Below, in pieces: positions 15,175-31,430 of a stretch of DNA of 64,000 bases. The position numbers were made by a program, and so were the translations under genes. Under the pieces are notes generated by a model. The model saw nothing but the letters and a program-made list of their open reading frames with translations. It searched no databases and was not told the origin of the DNA. Position 1 is the stretch's first letter. Each line of letters begins with the position of its first letter. Source of the stretch: a phage; sequence record PZ019084.1; one strand, given 5' to 3'.

Positions 15175-16686
15175 ATGACTGACATTAAAGTACATTTTTA
15201 TGATTTTAGTCACGTGAGAATTGATTGTGAAGAAAGTACATTTCATGAACTCCGTGATTTCTTTAGCTTTGAAGCTGATGGGTATCGTTTTAATCCGAAG
15301 TACAAATATGGCCACTGGGATGGACGAATCCGTCTTTTAGATTATAATCGCCTTCTTCCATTCGGCTTAGTCGGACAAATTAAAAAGTTCTGCGATAACT
15401 TTGGATATAAAGCTTGGATTGACCCGCAAATTAACGAAAAAGAAGAATTATCAAGAAAAGATTTTGATGAATGGCTTTCTAAGTTAGAAATCTATTCAGG
15501 AAATAAAAGAATTGAACCGCATTGGTATCAAAAAGATGCAGTGTTCGAAGGATTAGTTAATCGTCGTAGAATTCTTAATCTTCCAACATCCGCAGGTAAA
15601 TCTTTAATTCAAGCTTTGCTTGCACGTTATTATTTGGAAAATTATGAAGGTAAAATTCTTATCATTGTTCCAACAACTGCTCTGACAACTCAGATGGCTG
15701 ATGACTTTGTTGACTATCGTTTATTCAGTCATGCAATGATAAAGAAAATCGGTGGTGGAGCATCAAAAGATGATAAATATAAAAATGATGCACCAGTCGT
15801 TGTTGGTACATGGCAAACTGTAGTAAAACAACCAAAAGAATGGTTCTCACAGTTTGGAATGATGATGAATGATGAATGCCATCTTGCTACAGGAAAAAGT
15901 ATTTCATCTATCATATCAGGTTTAAATAACTGTATGTTCAAATTCGGTTTGTCTGGTTCATTACGCGATGGCAAAGCCAATATCATGCAGTATGTTGGAA
16001 TGTTTGGTGAAATATTTAAGCCAGTAACGACTTCTAAATTAATGGAAGATGGACAAGTAACTGAGTTAAAAATTAATAGTATTTTTCTTCGCTATCCCGA
16101 TGAGTTCACTACTAAATTAAAGGGAAAAACTTACCAAGAAGAAATAAAAATTATTACTGGGCTTAGTAAAAGAAATAAATGGATCGCTAAATTAGCTATT
16201 AAGCTTGCACAAAAAGATGAAAACGCTTTTGTCATGTTTAAACACGTATCGCACGGTAAAGCTATTTTCGATTTAATTAAAAATGAATACGATAAAGTTT
16301 ATTACGTATCAGGGGAAGTTGATACCGAAACACGCAACGTAATGAAAACCTTAGCTGAAAATGGTAAAGGAATAATTATAGTAGCTAGTTATGGTGTATT
16401 TTCTACTGGTATTTCAGTTAAAAATCTGCATCACGTTGTTTTAGCACACGGTGTTAAATCTAAAATTATTGTATTGCAAACAATAGGTCGCGTATTACGT
16501 AAGCATGGTTCCAAAACAATCGCAACAGTCTGGGACCTCATAGATGATTGTGGTGTTAAGCCAAAATCTGCTAATACGAAAAAGAAATATGTTCATTTGA
16601 ACTATCTTTTAAAACACGGCATTGATCGTATTCAGCGCTACGCAGATGAAAAATTTAATTACGTAATGAAAACAGTTAATTTATAA
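15175..16686 (+). CDS. uvsW: UvsW RNA-DNA/DNA-DNA helicase (SF2), 503 aa
   Basis: Walker A PTSAGKS and a DECH box (NDECH). Length matches T4 UvsW. Confidence 0.93.
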   Translation: MTDIKVHFYDFSHVRIDCEESTFHELRDFFSFEADGYRFNPKYKYGHWDGRIRLLDYNRLLPFGLVGQIKKFCDNFGYKAWIDPQINEKEELSRKDFDEWLSKLEIYSGNKRIEPHWYQKDAVFEGLVNRRRILNLPTSAGKSLIQALLARYYLENYEGKILIIVPTTALTTQMADDFVDYRLFSHAMIKKIGGGASKDDKYKNDAPVVVGTWQTVVKQPKEWFSQFGMMMNDECHLATGKSISSIISGLNNCMFKFGLSGSLRDGKANIMQYVGMFGEIFKPVTTSKLMEDGQVTELKINSIFLRYPDEFTTKLKGKTYQEEIKIITGLSKRNKWIAKLAIKLAQKDENAFVMFKHVSHGKAIFDLIKNEYDKVYYVSGEVDTETRNVMKTLAENGKGIIIVASYGVFSTGISVKNLHHVVLAHGVKSKIIVLQTIGRVLRKHGSKTIATVWDLIDDCGVKPKSANTKKKYVHLNYLLKHGIDRIQRYADEKFNYVMKTVNL

Positions 16687-16711
16687 GGGCTTCGGCCCTT
16701 TGGAGAAAAAG

Positions 16712-16942
16712 ATGTTACTAGAATTTAAACAATTTCTTTATGAAGCTTCTATTGATGAATTTATGGGTAAAATTGCCTCTTGTCAAACATTAGAAGGTTT
16801 AGAAGAACTTGAAGCTTATTACAAGAAAAGAGTTAAAGAAACTGAATTAAAAGATACTGATGACATCTCTGTAAGAGATGCTTTGGCAGGAAAAAGAGCT
16901 GAATTAGAAGATTCAGACGATGAAGTAGAAGAAAGCTTTTAA
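16712..16942 (+). CDS. uvsW.1: UvsW.1 small acidic protein, 76 aa
   Basis: The track ORF begins at TTG 16700. ATG 16712 follows a GGAGA RBS. Confidence 0.75.
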   Translation: MLLEFKQFLYEASIDEFMGKIASCQTLEGLEELEAYYKKRVKETELKDTDDISVRDALAGKRAELEDSDDEVEESF

Positions 16943-23152: not shown

Positions 23153-24247
23153 ATGGCAATTGTTAAAGAAATAACTGCTGATTTAATTAAAAAATCCGGT
23201 GAGACAATTTCAGCCGGACAAAGCACTAAATCAGAAGTAGGAATTAAAACATACACAGCCCAGTTTCCAACTGGGCGTGCTAGTGGTAATGACACTACAG
23301 GGGACTTCCAGGTAACAGATCTATATAAGAATGGATTATTATTTACTGCATACAATATGTCATCTAGGGATTCTGGAAGTCTTAGATCGATGAGATCTAA
23401 CTACTCTTCTTCATCTTCGAGTATTTTACGTACAGCCAGAAACACTATCAGTAATACAGTATCAAAACTGTCAAATGGATTAATATCAGATAATAATTCA
23501 GGAACAATAAGTAAAGCCCCTGTTGCAAATATTCTTTTACCAAGATCTAAATCCGATGTTGATACATCATCACATAGATTTAATGATGTTCAAGAAAGTC
23601 TTATCAGCAGAGGCGGAGGTACTGCTACTGGTGTGTTAAGTAATATTGCTTCAACTGCAGTATTTGGGGCACTGGAAAGTATAACACAAGGTATAATGGC
23701 TGATAATAATGAACAGATTTATACGACAGCCAGAAGTATGTATGGTGGTGCTGAGAATAGAACTAAAGTGTTTACATGGGATTTGACTCCACGTTCAACA
23801 GAAGATTTGATGGCTATTATCAATATCTATCAATATTTTAACTATTTTTCTTATGGTGAAACGGGCAAATCTCAATATGCTGCTGAAATAAAGGGGTATT
23901 TAGATGATTGGTATCGTTCTACGTTAATTGAACCTTTATCTCCGGAAGACGCAGCTAAAAATAAAACACTATTTGAGAAAATGACATCGAGTTTAACTAA
24001 CGTTCTAGTAGTTTCAAACCCGACAATTTGGATGGTGAAAAACTTTGGTGCAACATCTAAGTTTGATGGAAAAACGGAAATATTTGGCCCATGCCAAATA
24101 CAAAGCATCAGATTTGATAAAACACCTAATGGTAACTTTAACGGATTAGCTATTGCTCCAAACCTCCCTAGTACATTTACTCTTGAGATTACTATGAGAG
24201 AAATTATCACGTTAAACCGTGCTTCTTTATATGCGGGGACTTTTTAA
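23153..24247 (+). CDS. 48: baseplate-tail tube junction protein, 364 aa
   Basis: Length and position match T4 gp48. Confidence 0.9.
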   Translation: MAIVKEITADLIKKSGETISAGQSTKSEVGIKTYTAQFPTGRASGNDTTGDFQVTDLYKNGLLFTAYNMSSRDSGSLRSMRSNYSSSSSSILRTARNTISNTVSKLSNGLISDNNSGTISKAPVANILLPRSKSDVDTSSHRFNDVQESLISRGGGTATGVLSNIASTAVFGALESITQGIMADNNEQIYTTARSMYGGAENRTKVFTWDLTPRSTEDLMAIINIYQYFNYFSYGETGKSQYAAEIKGYLDDWYRSTLIEPLSPEDAAKNKTLFEKMTSSLTNVLVVSNPTIWMVKNFGATSKFDGKTEIFGPCQIQSIRFDKTPNGNFNGLAIAPNLPSTFTLEITMREIITLNRASLYAGTF

Positions 24248-25212
24248 TGTATTCTTTAGAGGAATTTAATAATCAAGCAATAAACGCAGATTTTCAACGT
24301 AATAATATGTTTAGCTGCGTTTTTGCGACAACTCCATCAACTAAAAGCTCTTCGTTGATAAGCTCAATTAGCAACTTTTCTTATAATAACTTGGGCCTAA
24401 ATTCAGATTGGTTAGGATTAACCCAAGGTGATATTAATCAGGGAATTACAACGTTAATTACTGCTGGAACACAAAAACTGACAAGAAAATCAGGAGTCAG
24501 TAAATATCTAATTGGTGCAATGAGTCAACGTACAGTTCAAAGTTTATTGGGCTCATTTACAGTTGGTACATATTTAATTGACTTCTTTAACATGGCATAT
24601 AACTCATCTGGATTGATGATATACTCTGTAAAAATGCCAGAGAATAGATTATCTTATGAAACTGACTGGAACTATAATTCTCCTAATATTCGCATAACCG
24701 GGAGAGAATTAGACCCTTTGGTTATTTCATTTAGAATGGATTCAGAGTCGTGTAATTATCGTGCAATGCAAGACTGGGTCAATGCTGTTCAAGACCCAGT
24801 AACTGGATTACGTGCTCTGCCGCAAGATGTCGAGGCGGATATCCAAGTTAATCTTCATTCTCGTAATGGATTGCCTCATACTGCGGTGATGTTCACCGGA
24901 TGCATTCCAGTGTCAGTGAGCGCTCCTGAGTTATCATATGATGGAGATAACCAAATAACTACATTTGATGTTACTTTTGCGTATAGAGTCATGCAGGCTG
25001 GAGCAGTTGATAGACAAGCTGCGCTTGAATGGCTTGAATCTGCTGCTATAAATGGTATTCAAAGCTCTTCTGGAAATAATGGAGGTGTTACTGAACTATC
25101 TAGTTCGCTTTCACGACTTAGTAGATTAGGTGGAACTGCAGGAAGCATTTCAAACATTAATACTATGACAGGGATTGTCAATTCGCAGAGTAAAATATTA
25201 GGAGCAATATAA
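24247..25212 (+). CDS. 54: baseplate tail-tube initiator, 321 aa
   Basis: Length and position match T4 gp54. TAATG coupling to gene 48. Confidence 0.9.
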   Translation: MYSLEEFNNQAINADFQRNNMFSCVFATTPSTKSSSLISSISNFSYNNLGLNSDWLGLTQGDINQGITTLITAGTQKLTRKSGVSKYLIGAMSQRTVQSLLGSFTVGTYLIDFFNMAYNSSGLMIYSVKMPENRLSYETDWNYNSPNIRITGRELDPLVISFRMDSESCNYRAMQDWVNAVQDPVTGLRALPQDVEADIQVNLHSRNGLPHTAVMFTGCIPVSVSAPELSYDGDNQITTFDVTFAYRVMQAGAVDRQAALEWLESAAINGIQSSSGNNGGVTELSSSLSRLSRLGGTAGSISNINTMTGIVNSQSKILGAI

Positions 25213-25214
25213 CA

Positions 25215-25236
25215 ATGGGGACCTTTCGGTCCCCAT
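25215..25236. terminator. bidirectional terminator between gene 54 (+) and the minus-strand early block
   Basis: ATGGGGACC-tttc-GGTCCCCAT followed by GTTTTT. Confidence 0.7.
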
Positions 25237-25240
25237 GTTT

Positions 25241-25531
25241 TTATTTACGGAATGAAATGAAAGCAGCAACTGAAGCAACTAAACTGTCTTCAATATAAAC
25301 TTCAATTTTTACCGGAGCTTCTGACTCAAATTTACCTGTTACCACACCCTGAAAAATACTTTCAGTCTGTTCTGGCTTTGAAAAATTTTCAGAAGGAAAA
25401 ATTCCGAACTTTTTATCTGTTCCAAAAATTTTAATAAATTCATCGTAAACTGCTTCATTAAAAGCATTATCAGCAGGAATAACGCCTTCAACTACAAGTT
25501 CTTGACCTAAAAAGCGCAAAGAAGATTTCAT
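25241..25531 (-). CDS. hypothetical 96-aa protein (alt.-3 position)
   Basis: ORF with a GAGGA RBS, preceded by an early-promoter cassette. Confidence 0.65.
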   Translation of the reverse strand: MKSSLRFLGQELVVEGVIPADNAFNEAVYDEFIKIFGTDKKFGIFPSENFSKPEQTESIFQGVVTGKFESEAPVKIEVYIEDSLVASVAAFISFRK

Positions 25532-25538
25532 TTTGTGT

Positions 25539-25592
25539 TCCTCATGTTATGTCAGTAAGATTACTATAACACAACACGATGGACTTGTAAAC
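25539..25592 (-). promoter_or_regulatory. early promoter/leader cassette, copy 1 of a 54-bp repeat
   Basis: Minus strand has GTTTAC (25592-25587), 18 nt, TATAGT (25568-25563), then a leader with a GAGGA SD. It matches 41539-41592 at 53 of 54 positions. Confidence 0.65.
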
Positions 25593-27649
25593 TACATCTT
25601 GAACTTTTTAGACATTCCGTTAATGTTAACCAAAGAAGCTAAGATTTGAGAAACTTCGTTTTCCTCTTCTTTTGATTCTTCTACAAGGAATTGATTAAAT
25701 CCAGCCATTGGACGAACTTCACCAGTTTCCATTAAATGGTCGCCATCATATACTGATTCTTCTAATTGTTCAGAAGGAGGAACGATTGTACCTTCGATTA
25801 GATACTTGTTATAAGCAGTTTCTTTCATAAAGTAAGTACTTACTTTATTAATCTTCAGTAAAATTCCACGTGGTAGAATAACTTCAGCTTCTGATGGAAA
25901 TCCTGATAAATGACCTGGAACGATAACTTTGATTCGCTCAGCTCCTTTAATTACCATACCCACGCTAGTTTCAGCATCTTCATTAGCATATGTAGAATGA
26001 CTACCCATATGCATTAAATCTTCAGCATCAACTGAACCTTCTCCTTCACCAGAAAATACTGCGCCGGAATCATCTAGAGCCATATAGTTTTTACCATGCT
26101 CACCGAAGATATTTGGTTTAAGCGATGTGGATACGAAGTTCTTGAAATAAAACATTTTATTTTCAATATTATGACGTAAAGTTTTAAAAGTAACTTCTTG
26201 TCCACGATAAAGCGTAGTTCCTGGAGGAAGAACTGACCCTTTGGCAAAGGCAGAATCCATTGTCTCGATGTGTTTAATAGCTCGTTCCATGTATTCTTCA
26301 CGGGTAGAATCTGGTTTACCCAAGAGGAACGAGTTCATTTCAACATATGAATCTGCACAATAATCTTCAATTACATCAGACTCAGCCTGAGTTAATCCTT
26401 TTGGAGTTACTTCAGTACTTGCATATTCATATGCCTGGGCAGCAGATTCATTAATCAATTTATAAATGCCATTCATGACAAATTGAATAATAGCTACCTT
26501 TTCGTCTGGCGTGGCTTTAGAACCTTTAACTAAATCATTAATAATTTTCTTAATAACATCAAAGCTATTAGAAATATTAATATCAGCAAGATCGCTCAAA
26601 ATTTTATCAGTTTTATAATCAAAGAATTCTTTATTCTTTAAATATTCTTGAGAACCTTGATATGTTATATCGCTCTGCAACTTGATGGATGGATCACGTA
26701 AACGTGCATGGGCTAATGCAATATGATTTCGGAAGTTTTCTAGTTCATAATCGCTAGATTTAAAACGAGAAGCACTTCTCATACCACCGATAGCTCCTTT
26801 GCTGAAGTTTGAACCAATCTGAATAACCCCAGAGTTCATTGGTCCTTCTGCTTTATATACCGGAACTTTAGATTCAAACTCTTGATATTTCTTGGCAGCG
26901 AAGCTATCACCCTGAAGTGAAGCATCGACAGTAGAATATTGAGCTTGTGCTGCTAATCGACGACTAATTTTAGTTTTCTGAATAACAGCTTGATCCGTGC
27001 GCTTATCATTTTCTAAAGCAATAGAAGCAGCAACAGCAACAGCTTTAGGAACAGCATTACCTGTTTTAACATCTACATAAACATCACCAACCTTTGATTC
27101 AACTTTTGTGAATAACTCAGTTGAAATAGGAGGTACACCTGGAATGTCTTCTAAATTGGCATTTTTACGGTAAACCATAATATATGCATACTTTTTATCA
27201 TAATCCCAGATTTCCTTTAAAAGAACATATCGACCTGCTCCTTTAGTACGTACTAAACGGTCAGCAATAACTTGCATTTGACGAGCTGCGCCATTTGTTT
27301 TACTTTTTAGTACGCGGAATAGGCATGCGTCAATTTTATACTGTTTCATTGTTTGAAGAGCAGTATCAAAAACGGCATTAATGACACCAATTGGATTTCC
27401 ACCCAAGTTTTTAAGTTTAACTAATGATAGTTTCTCATTAACACCTATCATTACGATATGCATCATTTTATCGCCTGGCTTAACGTTTTTATTTGTATCA
27501 CCGCCAGAGGTGTATGTACAAAATCTAAATCCAGGAAGCACACTTTCTTCGCCGGCTTGAATAGCAAAAATTTGAGGTATTTTATGCTTAGGATTTAAGT
27601 TAACAACCGGCGCCGAAGCGCCGTCAAATAATTCTGTAATAAGTTCCAT
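25592..27649 (-). CDS. Alt-like NAD:protein ADP-ribosyltransferase paralogue, intact 685 aa
   Basis: The N-terminal 230 aa are homologous to the neighbouring alt copy. R-S-E ART signature is present: TLYRGQ, NFVSTSL, SEAEVILPRG. Confidence 0.85.
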   Translation of the reverse strand: MELITELFDGASAPVVNLNPKHKIPQIFAIQAGEESVLPGFRFCTYTSGGDTNKNVKPGDKMMHIVMIGVNEKLSLVKLKNLGGNPIGVINAVFDTALQTMKQYKIDACLFRVLKSKTNGAARQMQVIADRLVRTKGAGRYVLLKEIWDYDKKYAYIMVYRKNANLEDIPGVPPISTELFTKVESKVGDVYVDVKTGNAVPKAVAVAASIALENDKRTDQAVIQKTKISRRLAAQAQYSTVDASLQGDSFAAKKYQEFESKVPVYKAEGPMNSGVIQIGSNFSKGAIGGMRSASRFKSSDYELENFRNHIALAHARLRDPSIKLQSDITYQGSQEYLKNKEFFDYKTDKILSDLADINISNSFDVIKKIINDLVKGSKATPDEKVAIIQFVMNGIYKLINESAAQAYEYASTEVTPKGLTQAESDVIEDYCADSYVEMNSFLLGKPDSTREEYMERAIKHIETMDSAFAKGSVLPPGTTLYRGQEVTFKTLRHNIENKMFYFKNFVSTSLKPNIFGEHGKNYMALDDSGAVFSGEGEGSVDAEDLMHMGSHSTYANEDAETSVGMVIKGAERIKVIVPGHLSGFPSEAEVILPRGILLKINKVSTYFMKETAYNKYLIEGTIVPPSEQLEESVYDGDHLMETGEVRPMAGFNQFLVEESKEEENEVSQILASLVNINGMSKKFKM

Positions 27650-27652
27650 GAT

Positions 27653-29729
27653 TTATCCTTGAACGAACTTGTAAGGCATGTTTGTAATATCTATGCAAGA
27701 CGCAATAATTCCAAGAGATGATTCTACTTTTTGTTTAACATTTGATGAAACAAATGATGCAAAGTCAACTCTGTCTTCTATTTCAATATCACCTGTCATT
27801 GCAACTACTTCACCAGTTTCCATTAGACGGTCACCGTCATAAATGACTGATTCGGTGAGTTCTTCCGTAGTCATAACTTCAGCTTGAATGAGTTTTGTAT
27901 TATTAGATGTTGTTCCGTCATTATTAGAAGCATCAGTTATTTTATTAACTTTGACCAATAACTTCAGCTTCTGTTGCTATTCCGAGACTTCCTGGATATA
28001 CAACATTAACTTTATGAGCTCCATCAATTGCCCATCCTATTTGAACTTTAACGTATTCAGGATTTTCTTTATACGCTCTTATTTCGTTTGGATTAATAGT
28101 TATTCCTTCTTCATTTTTATCAACTGTTAATTCATTACGAGCTTCTGGTTCTAAAAGACCAATACCAGCATGTGTAATTCCAAAACGTCCAAAAATGATA
28201 GGAGTTAAAGAAGTAGATACAAAATTTCTGAAATAGAACACTTTATTTTTAACTAGTGCTTCGTATATAGGAGCAGTCATACTTTGAGCACGATAAACTG
28301 TAATGCCTTCTGGTATACGGTCACCATTTTCAAAAGCTGAATCTAAGTTATTTATAGCAGATTCAATTTCTTTTTCACTCATTACATCATATCGTTCTGG
28401 ATTGTAGCGTCCTAAAAGAAGATTATTGATGTCAGTATATCCTGAACCACAATACTCTCTAATGCCGCGCTTTTGTGATGGAGTATATTTAGAACCATCA
28501 CGGGCAATAGTAATATCAATCATTGGACCTGCACCAATTCCAGAAAAGCTATAAATCATTCGTTTGAGGAATTTAGTTTTTGCTGCTTTCCAGGAATTTT
28601 TAGTTATTTCTTCCCAGACTTCATCTGGCTGTCCTTTACGGGTTTTATTATGTTTATCAAGCCAAGTATCTTTATATTCTTCAAAGAATTTATTAATAGC
28701 TGCTGCATACTTCTCTAAACATTTTATTGAAGTAGTTGGTTCATTTTTAATCGCATTAAGAATTACATCTTTAATTTTTTCAGAAACTTCATTAACCTCA
28801 CTTTTTGAAAAGAATTTATAATCATAGTGAAGTTCATCTGCAGTTCCTTCGGCAATAATTTTTGCTGCCTTAGTTTTAGAAGCTAGTGAATTAATTCCAA
28901 GTTTCATTTCTTCCGCTTCGGGAATTAAAGGAGCTGTGGCAGGTTTATTGAAATTAGCTGCAGTAGATTCATACTTTTGGAATAATTCACTTTCAAATCT
29001 AGAAGATTCCAATGACTGACTTTGTGCAATTGCTCTACGGGAAATTTTAACTTTAACGATTACAGCTTGGTCAGAACGTTTATCATTTTCTTGCGCAATA
29101 GATGCTGCAATTGCCTCATTTTTAGTTACTTGAGCTCCAGTATCTTTATTGATATAAACATCACCGACCTTCGATTCAACTTTAGTAAAGAGCTCGGTGC
29201 TAATTTCCGGAACTCCTGGAATGTCTTCTAATGATACATTTTTGCGATGTATAAGAATATATGCGTACTTTTTATCGTAATCCCAGAGTTCCTTAAGAAG
29301 GACGTATCTGCCACCTGAACGACTACGGATAAGTCTATCAGCAATAACTTGAATTTGTCGAGCTTGACCAGCAGTTTTAGACTTAAGAATACGAAGCATG
29401 CAGGCATCAATTTTATACTGGCGCATCGTCTGCATTGCAACAGTAAAAACTGAATTGATATAATTAATTGGGCTTGGACCGAGACCTTTTAATTTAGCAA
29501 TTGAACCTTTAGCAGTTAATGTAAAAGGAACAATATGCATCATTTTATCGCCCATCTTTAAATCGCGATTAGTATCACCTCCAGATGTATAGGTACATAA
29601 ACGAAAGCCTGGTTGTTCAATTGCGTCATCAACATGAACTGAAAAAATTTGCGGTATTTTCTTCTTTGGATTTAAGTTTGTAATCGGAAGAGTAGTATCT
29701 TCGTCAAATAATTCTGTAATAAGTTCCAT
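27653..29729 (-). pseudogene. alt: Alt ADP-ribosyltransferase gene interrupted by a frame-shifting deletion (595-codon and 101-codon pieces)
   Basis: ART motifs VYRAQ, NFVSTSL and TEAEVI are followed by a premature TAA at 27945-27947. The remaining C-terminal tail (LVKVNKITD...YDGDRLMETGEV...) is in another frame starting at 27958. Confidence 0.8.
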
Positions 29730-29781
29730 CATAGCCTCTCTAGTGTTTATTCTATTTATAAAATTAAAGGCCCGAAGGCCT

Positions 29782-29970
29782 TTAATAATCTATTGGTAAG
29801 AGAGTACGATATATTTCAAACTTTGGTCCTTTTTCATAGGCATCAAATGTTTCTGTGAATTTATTATAAGCATATGCATCTACAAATTCGAGAATGACTT
29901 GTGATACAGAAGTAGAAACATCTCCACCTTCTTTTTGAGCAATGACAATTGTTTCTAAGTAAGCTTTCAT
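29782..29970 (-). CDS. hypothetical 62-aa protein between gene 30 and alt
   Basis: ORF overlapping the ligase stop by ATGA-type coupling. Confidence 0.6.
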   Translation of the reverse strand: MKAYLETIVIAQKEGGDVSTSVSQVILEFVDAYAYNKFTETFDAYEKGPKFEIYRTLLPIDY

Positions 29971-31430
29971 AGACCAGTTACCTCATGAAAATCACCAAAT
30001 ACATCCTCGAATGTATTAGCTTTAGTTTTATCTTCACGTAAACGAATCGCAATTGGAAGAAATAATTTAACGTAATCAGTGCGGCCATCAGATTTTAACC
30101 AACCGTTGCATTCACACTCTAGAATTTTTCCAATATAATAATTTTGGTTTTCCATAATGCGAGTACGGTCAAGTTCATGTGATTTTACACCGGCTTTATC
30201 TTTTAAGCCTGAACCAGCATTTACTTTAATTTTTCCACATTCTGATTCAAGAATAAATCCACCGGCTTTAGTAGGGTCTTTACGGTGAGGATAAATTCCT
30301 ACAATTTTTAAATCAACATCAATTACTTCTTTAAATTTATAGAGATTTTTTGAACGAGCATTTTCCCATAATCCATCGGTATTTTTGAGAATAATACCTT
30401 CAAGACCTTGGTCAATATACTTTTTATAAATTACCTTAGCTTCATCTAGGTTATTTACTACCTGGTTTTCAATTAAAATTACTTTATCATATCCTGATGT
30501 CATTTGTTCTAGTTTAGAAAAACGTACATCATATTTTAAACGAAACGCTGGAAGACCGTATATTTCTACCAACGGGACATAATCCCAGACCTGAAACTTC
30601 ATGCATTGAGCTTCTTTTTCAGAAATGGTTCCTTTTAAGGATTTATTGGCGATTCCATTAGAAGTAGTACGAGATTCCGCTACTTCGGCGAATTCTTTAG
30701 CTTTACTAATTTCAGGATAAGCATCAAAAAGAAAATCTAGGCCTTCTGGTTCCTTTTTAACTTGCTCATGGTATACCAATTCGCCATCAATTAACACACC
30801 TTCTGGATGAATCTGGCGGGCTTCAGCAGTCATTTTGATTAACTCTTCCTTAAGAAGATCTAATCCTAGATATTCATTACCAGCTCGTGATAAAAGACGA
30901 ACATCATCTAATTCATCGCCTCGGACTTCAGCAAAACACCGAGCTCCATCTGCTTTTAACTGCGCAAAGGCTGGAAACTTGATATTCTTACTAATACCTT
31001 TTTCATCATAAGAACTTGCCAGCATTTGAGGTTGTTCAGGAATTAAACCTGGCCAAACTTTGTTTGCAATAGATACTGAAGCACCGCATTCAAGGTCTCG
31101 CATCATCACTCGACGCAAAACTTCAACATCATCCTTTTTACCATCAGTGATATATCCAGTTAATTCCTCAATTGCAGCATTTCCAGTCAATTTCCGAGTA
31201 GCTAACGTGAATTCAATGAAGTCAAGCATATCGGTAATAGTCAGCATTCCAAAACTCTGGGTAGCAATACCAGGCTTAGGCCATTTCTTAATATAATACT
31301 GTAACCCACGAGAATAAGTCAGACGATATACCCGTTTAAGCAATTCATTATCTTTATTCTTTTCAAGAATTGCTTGCTTCTGCTTAGTTGATCCAATAGA
31401 TGCTATTTCATTCAGAATTTTAAGAATCAT
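29967..31430 (-). CDS. 30: ATP-dependent DNA ligase, 487 aa
   Basis: Adenylation motif AQLKADGARC (KxDG). Length matches T4 gp30. Confidence 0.95.
   Translation of the reverse strand: MILKILNEIASIGSTKQKQAILEKNKDNELLKRVYRLTYSRGLQYYIKKWPKPGIATQSFGMLTITDMLDFIEFTLATRKLTGNAAIEELTGYITDGKKDDVEVLRRVMMRDLECGASVSIANKVWPGLIPEQPQMLASSYDEKGISKNIKFPAFAQLKADGARCFAEVRGDELDDVRLLSRAGNEYLGLDLLKEELIKMTAEARQIHPEGVLIDGELVYHEQVKKEPEGLDFLFDAYPEISKAKEFAEVAESRTTSNGIANKSLKGTISEKEAQCMKFQVWDYVPLVEIYGLPAFRLKYDVRFSKLEQMTSGYDKVILIENQVVNNLDEAKVIYKKYIDQGLEGIILKNTDGLWENARSKNLYKFKEVIDVDLKIVGIYPHRKDPTKAGGFILESECGKIKVNAGSGLKDKAGVKSHELDRTRIMENQNYYIGKILECECNGWLKSDGRTDYVKLFLPIAIRLREDKTKANTFEDVFGDFHEVTGL

Follow-up and report, generated by a model that had tools for sequence, protein, structure and literature searches.

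What are two large, adjacent Alt-like genes doing between gene 54 and the DNA ligase gene of a T4-like phage, and why is one of them in two pieces? The question is raised by a stretch of 64,000 nucleotides (nt) from the phage sequence record PZ019084.1, hereafter the window, whose phage is a Tequatrovirus (T4-like coliphage). In phage T4, Alt (gpAlt, NP_049811) is an NAD:arginine mono-ADP-ribosyltransferase that modifies RNA polymerase on its alpha subunit. A preliminary description of the window had proposed that a gene of 685 amino acids (aa) and a neighbour split into open reading frames (ORFs) of 595 and 101 aa are a tandem, diverged pair of such enzymes, in which a swapped central part looks like a diversification of target recognition. 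Our analysis indicates that the locus is very probably the standard Tequatrovirus alt cluster, with two paralogous genes for Alt-family ADP-ribosyltransferases (ARTs), of which the classical alt is cut by a 17-nt deletion private to this phage.

Relationship of the two large genes

Both genes lie on the minus strand. The downstream one (25592-27649) is a full-length alt.-2 encoding an intact 685-aa Alt paralogue, an assignment based on its ORF, homology, Pfam matches and fold. The upstream one is the alt orthologue, with its 5' part in the 595-aa ORF (27945-29732) and its 3' part, out of frame, in the 101-aa ORF (27653-27958). The 101-aa ORF and the end of the 595-aa ORF overlap by 14 nt, and only 3 nt separate the stop codon of the former from the start codon of the 685-aa gene. 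The length of 595 aa includes one additional upstream ATG, since the mechanical ORF begins 3 nt before the T4-equivalent MELITE start at 29729.

When compared by BLASTP, the 685-aa and 595-aa proteins were 42% identical over 616 columns with an E value of 2e-142, and their similarity is therefore not a matter of chance. In 30-codon windows the N-terminal ~240 aa of the pair were 50-80% identical and the following ~180 residues, which we call the middle region, 14-35%, after which conservation resumed in the ART motifs and the tail. No similarity was detectable by BLASTP between the two middle regions compared alone (E = 9.5), while the tails were 35% identical (E = 7e-14) and the first 27 nt of the two genes were the same at all 27 positions. 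The preliminary description had read most of this correctly. The adjacent ORFs are where it had placed them, and the N-terminal blocks that it listed (MELITELFD, KIDAC, GRYVLLKE-WDYDKKYAY, STELFTKVESKVGDVY and ENDKR-DQAVI) are all found in both genes, as are the blocks of the ART signature and the tail (YRGQ/YRAQ, NFVSTSL, EAEVI and YDGD-LMETGEV). Its statement that the middle sections are essentially unrelated holds at the sequence level, the tails that it called similar are indeed related, and the opening 27 nt that it called nearly identical are fully so.

The assignment of both genes to the Alt-type R-S-ExE ARTs also stood up. The Pfam family PF03496 (ADPrib_exo_Tox), with a curated cutoff of 23.4 bits, matched the 685-aa protein with 71.6 bits and the 595-aa protein with 101.4 bits, and PHROG 802, 'Alt-like RNA polymerase ADP-ribosyltransferase', spans both genes essentially end to end. 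In an alignment of 20-21 family members the catalytic residues R482, S507, S509, E587 and E589 (numbering of the 685-aa protein) were invariant, and the predicted fold, described below, is of the Vis/C3/VIP2 kind.

The 17-nt deletion in alt

Across the 4.8-kb region that we compared with phage GiZh, the window differs by 106 substitutions and a single indel. This indel is a 17-nt deletion with its junction at 27956..27957, where the alignment to GiZh identifies the lost coding-strand bases as CTACCGCGCGGATTGAT, which encode LPRGLM; on the coding strand, the succession of GAAGTTATT, CTACCGCGCGGATTGAT and GGTCAAAG has become GAAGTTATTGGTCAAAGTTAA. The pieces of 595 and 101 aa are a single gene cut by this one deletion, a cause that the preliminary description had missed, although it had given the ORFs themselves rightly. 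The 595-aa ORF holds the N-terminal domain, a middle region of the T6/T2 type and the ART domain as far as ExE, and the truncated protein ends in …TEAEVIGQS and a stop, three codons past the catalytic ExE. The 101-aa ORF, which corresponds to positions 578-674 of phrog_802, holds the last ART strands, the LTE motif for the prohead protease gp21 and the C-terminal propeptide (SVIYDGDRLMETGEV…KFVQG). The deletion therefore leaves the final beta-strands, the LTE site and the propeptide out of frame, and it takes away the LPRG motif that is invariant in full-length members of the family. Congruently, the PF03496 match in the window alt stops at position 162 of the 196 in the profile, compared with position 195 in the intact GiZh orthologue. 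As encoded, the window alt is a truncated gene with an incomplete ART fold, and the deletion probably inactivates the classical alt.

A probe of 80 nt across the junction showed the 17 nt to be present in all 30 relatives listed. The junction itself had no uninterrupted match among 50,697 phage records and was absent from the contigs of IMG/VR. This deletion is the only feature at the locus that is peculiar to the phage of the window.

We consider it reasonably probable that the deletion is a real private mutation. The strongest competitor is a sequencing or assembly artefact, in which case the phage would have the ordinary intact pair, and we regard this as unlikely but as a serious possibility. 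The uniqueness of the junction in both collections speaks for an artefact, no independent copy of the phage's proteins is at hand for comparison, and the lost segment contains a GC-rich palindrome (CCGCGCGG) that could be a trouble spot for base calling in the heavily modified DNA of T-even phages. The flanks, however, are clean, a loss of 17 nt is untypical of a homopolymer error, and all the other conserved genes of the 64 kb are free of frameshifts. When the T4 ORFs of at least 90 aa with matches in the window were taken as a check on the quality of the assembly, 63 of the 66 were covered by one uninterrupted alignment each; the three exceptions were the known uvsW/uvsW.1 arrangement, a divergent gene 37 and a spurious ORF, which leaves alt as the only disrupted conserved gene. 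A real loss would also be tolerable because alt is dispensable in T4 (PMC5694885). Finally, against the artefact, truncated Alt-family genes are common elsewhere: alt.-2-type genes are cut to 624 aa (P0006), 528 aa (P0008) and 415 aa (P0010, 14 contigs) in other assemblies, and PHROGs 23966 and 26651 are families of Alt fragments. Decay or mis-sequencing of Alt-family genes is common.

Domains and predicted fold of the 685-aa paralogue

The intact paralogue can be divided into four parts, all given here on the minus strand. The MELITE motif for gp21 cleavage and a conserved alpha/beta N-terminal domain occupy aa 1-238 (26936..27649). An all-helical middle region without detectable similarity to the alt middle follows at aa 239-415 (26405..26935), and the ART domain, outlined by Pfam, alignment and Foldseek, lies at aa 416-620 (25790..26404) with the residues R482, S507-T-S509 and E587-x-E589. 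The protein closes with an LEE-631 motif and a propeptide that is predicted to be disordered (SVYDGDHLMETGEV…KKFKM; 25592..25762). An AlphaFold2 model (mean pLDDT 74.7, pTM 0.63) showed an alpha/beta N-terminal domain at ~11-225, an all-helical part at 230-415, the ART domain at 420-625 and a disordered tail at 629-685. Searched against the Protein Data Bank (PDB) with Foldseek, the model retrieved Vis, C3bot, VIP2, CDTa and iota-like toxins with a probability of 1.0, the first four with E values from 2e-7 to 1e-4; by this model, the 685-aa protein has a complete predicted ART fold. The family PF26846 (Tevenvirinae_ADPRT) is annotated in its 99%-identical homologues. A sequence search of the PDB returned no solved Alt structure and only weak matches of the ART core to CDTa and iota-like toxins, and a search of NCBIfam gave no family match.

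A separate observation concerns the N-terminal part. The model of aa 1-420 (26390-27649, minus strand), searched with Foldseek against predicted viral structures, gave weak matches (E 1e-4 to 1e-6, ~170-230 aligned columns). The matched proteins are large and uncharacterised and come from unrelated myoviruses, and some of them carry other domains of an effector-like kind (Zeta toxin, deaminase, ParB/sulfiredoxin). The Alt N-terminal domain may, from these model-based matches, be a more general delivery module.

The T4 remnant and the distribution of the pair

With T4 Alt (682 aa), the upstream copy in its intact form from GiZh shares 70% identity and the 685-aa protein 41%, which identifies the upstream gene as the alt orthologue. 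The DNA of T4 alt.-1/alt.-2, in turn, matches the first ~360 nt of the 685-aa gene nearly base for base, with 1 nt missing that causes a frameshift, and then skips to the last codons of the same gene. The T4 breakpoints fall on 9-nt direct repeats of CTAAAAAGT, a sequence that occurs only twice in the whole window: the first repeat (27302..27310, minus strand) corresponds to the 5' end of a 1,699-nt deletion in T4 and the second (25603..25611, minus strand) to its 3' end. We therefore conclude that T4 lost 1,699 nt by deletion between the repeats. The preliminary description had suggested that the 685-aa copy is an ancestral paralogue that decayed in T4, and the near identity of its first ~360 nt with alt.-1/alt.-2 bears this out; on the evidence of the alignment, what T4 has as alt.-1/alt.-2 is, in its ancestral and intact form, the 685-aa gene.

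The remnant origin of these two T4 genes is already established knowledge. Both the T4 RefSeq note and Nolan et al. 2006 (PMC1524935) treat alt.-1/alt.-2 as what is left of a duplicated alt, and the paper also reported full-length alt duplicates in other T4-like phages. The GenBank records of GiZh and T6 label the full-length gene 'apparent insertion in alt.-2', and that of GiZh adds attP-L and attP-R features. We rejected the insertion in favour of a deletion in T4, which the data fit, because the full-length gene is a complete enzyme with ~48%-identical relatives (e.g. JS10) and because the T4 breakpoints are the 9-nt direct repeats. The attP-L/attP-R features and the insertion wording in GiZh look like a misreading.

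The 4.8-kb region matched 543 phage records, all of T4-like coliphages and their relatives (Tequatrovirus), and in 280 of them the match, at 95-98% identity, extended over 80% or more of the region; with many Tequatrovirus genomes the identity was 97-98%. In most of the records two genes are annotated as 'Alt-like RNA polymerase ADP-ribosyltransferase'. No record was identical to the region, the nearest genomes being ~96-98% identical, and phages GiZh, T6 and T2 share the layout of alt.-3, a gene of 2058 nt, an alt of 2094 nt and alt.1. The middle of the 685-aa gene was found at 90% identity or more in 402 records (at 95% or more in almost all of them) and the T4-type remnant junction in 91, where the counts are of records and some phages are entered twice, in GenBank and in RefSeq. 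With 402 full-length genes to 91 remnants, the intact pair is the majority state and T4 the exception.

These numbers do not sustain the novelty that the preliminary description had seen in the pair. T4 lacks an intact pair, but T2, T6 and most other relatives carry it and many annotate it, so the two genes are the ordinary, already annotated alt/alt.-2 pair of the T-even phages. As a discovery the pair carries little weight, being annotated in hundreds of genomes, with the T4 remnant described since at least 2006. Two modest additions made here are the microhomology mechanism of the T4 deletion and the evidence for repeated fusion of both genes, which is given in the next section.

Recombination between the genes and exchange of the middle region

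The preliminary description had pointed out that the shared 5' ends would allow unequal recombination, and three single chimeric genes with different crossover points support this. The family alignment contained some proteins of the alt.-2-type cluster with alt-type N-termini. In ECML-134 (complete genome, JX128259.1; L007, 1742-3802) and in a 65-kb Logan contig (L005, 5001-7055) a single chimeric Alt gene stands alone between alt.1 and alt.-3, and in L006 (5001-7061) it directly follows alt.1 on a contig that ends just past the gene. The chimeras consist of an alt-type 5' end and an alt.-2-type body, so every one of them has dropped the body of alt and kept that of alt.-2. By sliding-window DNA identity, the crossover lies at about nt 450-480 in ECML-134, ~540 in L005 and ~650 in L006. 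Because these points differ, we conclude that three independent unequal crossovers took place within the ~700-nt homologous 5' region.

A second kind of exchange is apparent within alt. Between T4 Alt and the window alt with its frame repaired, identity is ~100% over aa 1-240, falls to 16-33% at aa 281-400, recovers to 59-73% for the greater part of the ART domain and reaches 88-95% in the tail. Such sharp boundaries indicate that the middle was replaced by recombination rather than changed by gradual drift, and the pattern of identity suggests a cassette-like replacement. The middle is thus swapped even between orthologous alleles of alt; that this would diversify target recognition, as the preliminary description had proposed, is a conjecture. 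The alt middle spans 28503-29012 (minus strand) of the window, and the allelic type found in T6, T2 and the window is sharply unlike that of T4. The window (T6-type) alt middle was at least 90% identical in 314 records and less than 60% identical in 432, whereas the alt.-2 middle is almost uniformly at least 95% identical.

Putative packaging and expression signals

T4 Alt is a head protein, present in ~40 copies, that is injected with the DNA, and the prohead protease gp21 trims it at ITE-6 and LTE-619, the latter cut removing a C-terminal propeptide of 63 residues (PMC5694885). Both window genes carry MELITE. In the 685-aa paralogue, ITE-6 and LEE-631 align to the two sites mapped in T4 Alt, and the tail beyond residue 629 is predicted to be disordered and carries the conserved SVYDGDHLMETGEV. 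The window alt has its LTE motif only inside the out-of-frame 101-aa piece. Since the paralogues conserve the prohead-related parts together with the catalytic core, the analogy with T4 Alt leads us to infer packaging, processing and injection for the 685-aa protein too.

A pattern search found a T4-type late promoter box, TATAAATA, at 29753..29760 (minus strand), ~20 nt before the alt start codon; by its agreement with the T4 consensus it would drive late transcription. A terminator-like hairpin (aaaggccttcgggccttt), read from the sequence, follows alt.1 just upstream of this promoter (29766..29783, minus strand). With the 685-aa gene only 3 nt behind alt, both genes would be co-transcribed. 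Within the alt coding region, at 28349-28356 (minus strand), there is a second exact TATAAATA box, ~700 nt upstream of the 685-aa gene. This box may supply the 685-aa gene with a late transcript of its own, or it may be a chance occurrence.

Proposed explanation and alternatives

We propose that both large genes encode paralogous Alt-family arginine-type (R-S-ExE) mono-ADP-ribosyltransferases of a shared build, in which a 6-residue propeptide (MELITE, with the cut after its last residue), a conserved N-terminal domain of ~230 aa, a variable helical middle and a C3/VIP2-like ART domain are followed by an L-x-E cleavage site and a C-terminal propeptide. If they behave as T4 Alt does, both would be transcribed late from the TATAAATA promoter upstream of alt, enter the prohead core, be trimmed at both ends by gp21, and accompany the injected DNA into the cell, where they would ADP-ribosylate host proteins. 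Differences in target, if there are any, would be expected to reside in the non-homologous middle and the divergent loops of the ART domain. If the deletion is real, the phage would depend on the alt.-2-type enzyme alone.

Several points weigh against this explanation. The four exact proteins of this phage were absent from a collection of 15 billion proteins, so the deletion stands without independent confirmation and a local assembly error is possible. A search of the literature gave no report of expression, packaging, cleavage or activity of the 685-aa protein, and turned up neither work on the function of the second paralogue nor proteomic data on it from virions. Moreover, the 3 nt in front of the 685-aa gene leave no room there for a separate late promoter, and polarity from the early stop in alt could lower expression of the 685-aa gene.

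The 685-aa paralogue might, alternatively, be catalytically dead, or a purely structural head protein, instead of a second injected enzyme. This would be in keeping with the silence of the literature, where our search yielded no experimental data on the paralogue, and with T4 and the 91 T4-type records, which do without the gene. We nonetheless judge it very improbable, as the catalytic residues and both protease motifs are all conserved, conservation of the gene is 95% or higher in nearly all of the 402 records that contain it, and the chimeric phages with a single gene have retained precisely the alt.-2 ART body. Still less credible is a split alt that stays active through a +1 ribosomal frameshift at ATT-G-GTC or through non-covalent assembly of the 595-aa and 101-aa pieces, which we rejected: a TTG codon made at the junction does overlap the end of the 595-aa ORF, other phages have Alt genes annotated as 'split' and a PHROG of ~117-aa C-terminal pieces exists, but the junction has no slippery motif, the six residues LPRGLM, with the invariant LPRG, are deleted outright, the break falls inside the ART beta-core directly after ExE, and the relatives all encode one continuous frame here.

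We thus return to the paralogous pair with a truncated alt, and to what the states of the locus may mean. T4 has lost alt.-2, the phage of the window has probably lost alt, phages of the ECML-134 type have fused both, and most keep both. Tentatively, and with considerable doubt, the alt locus might be viewed as a cassette system that offers two slots to injected ART effectors, where a phage can lose the one slot or the other and the helical middle is an exchangeable module for target or defence specificity. Were this true, the alt.-2-type enzyme that is absent from T4 would have its own host target or a role in counter-defence and could serve as the sole injected ART. The loss of either copy in different phages, the three independent fusions and the modular exchange of the middle suggest that selection is still acting on what the effectors recognise. 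T4, from which almost all knowledge of injected phage ARTs has been obtained, is a minority variant without the second enzyme, and T2 and T6, which are as tractable, hold both genes intact.

Neighbouring genes and other features of the window

Five minus-strand reading frames fill the interval between gene 54 (24247-25212, plus strand) and the DNA ligase gene 30 (29967-31430, minus strand), both taken from the ORF list. The gene order on the minus strand is ligase (gene 30), alt.1, alt, full-length alt.-2 and alt.-3. The upstream neighbour of alt, alt.1, encodes a Phage_blade protein of 62 aa (29782-29970, minus strand). The final gene of the cluster, alt.-3 (25241-25531, minus strand), encodes a DUF5498 protein; both assignments are from ORF and Pfam. 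A terminator-like bidirectional hairpin (25215..25236), found in the sequence, separates alt.-3 from gene 54. At 96 aa, the alt.-3 of the window is of wild-type length; C-terminal extensions of T4 Alt.-3 are escape mutations against the CmdTAC defence system (PMC11618068). A sigma-70-like promoter (TTTACA, a 17-nt spacer and TATAGT, with an upstream TG) was seen at 25563-25591 (minus strand), adjoining the stop codon of the 685-aa gene and upstream of alt.-3. T4 keeps the same promoter sequence directly 3' of its deletion junction.

Two of the exceptions in the ORF check deserve a comment. The genes uvsW and uvsW.1 are two ORFs in different frames at 15181-16939 (plus strand), where the T4 RefSeq stretch has one ORF of 587 aa. 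The split matches the correction that Nolan et al. 2006 (PMC1524935) published, and the window is not in error here. Gene 37 (60267-62759, plus strand), for the distal long tail fibre, is only ~49% identical to T4 gp37 over the first 849 residues, and the receptor specificity of the phage therefore likely differs from that of T4.

Comparison with known systems

Compared with T4 Alt, the upstream gene of the window is a positional orthologue, with ~100% identity in aa 1-240, and the architecture, the R-S-ExE motifs and the two gp21 cleavage motifs of T4 Alt recur in both window genes. The window alt departs from T4 Alt in its T6/T2-type middle, which is 16-33% identical to that of T4, and in its truncation by the 17-nt deletion, and the 685-aa protein in being only 41% identical. 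The full-length alt.-2 of T2, T6, RB14, RB32, RB51 and GiZh is the same gene as the 685-aa gene, and the T2 and T6 versions show no substantive difference from it. The T4 alt.-1/alt.-2 (NP_049810, NP_049809) differ from it by the 1-nt frameshift and the 1,699-nt deletion.

More distant relatives are the JS10 'altb' and the KM16-type Alt, which match the 685-aa protein from end to end, the middle included, at 46-50% identity but belong to other T4-like genera and are more diverged. Their occurrence there indicates an old alt.-2 lineage rather than a recent duplication within Tequatrovirus. Outside the T4-like phages, C3 exoenzyme, VIP2, the iota/CDTa toxins and Vis (PF03496) have the same catalytic fold and motifs; unlike the Alt proteins, they are secreted toxins, not virion cargo, and lack the Tevenvirinae N-terminal domain, the helical middle and the propeptides for the prohead protease.

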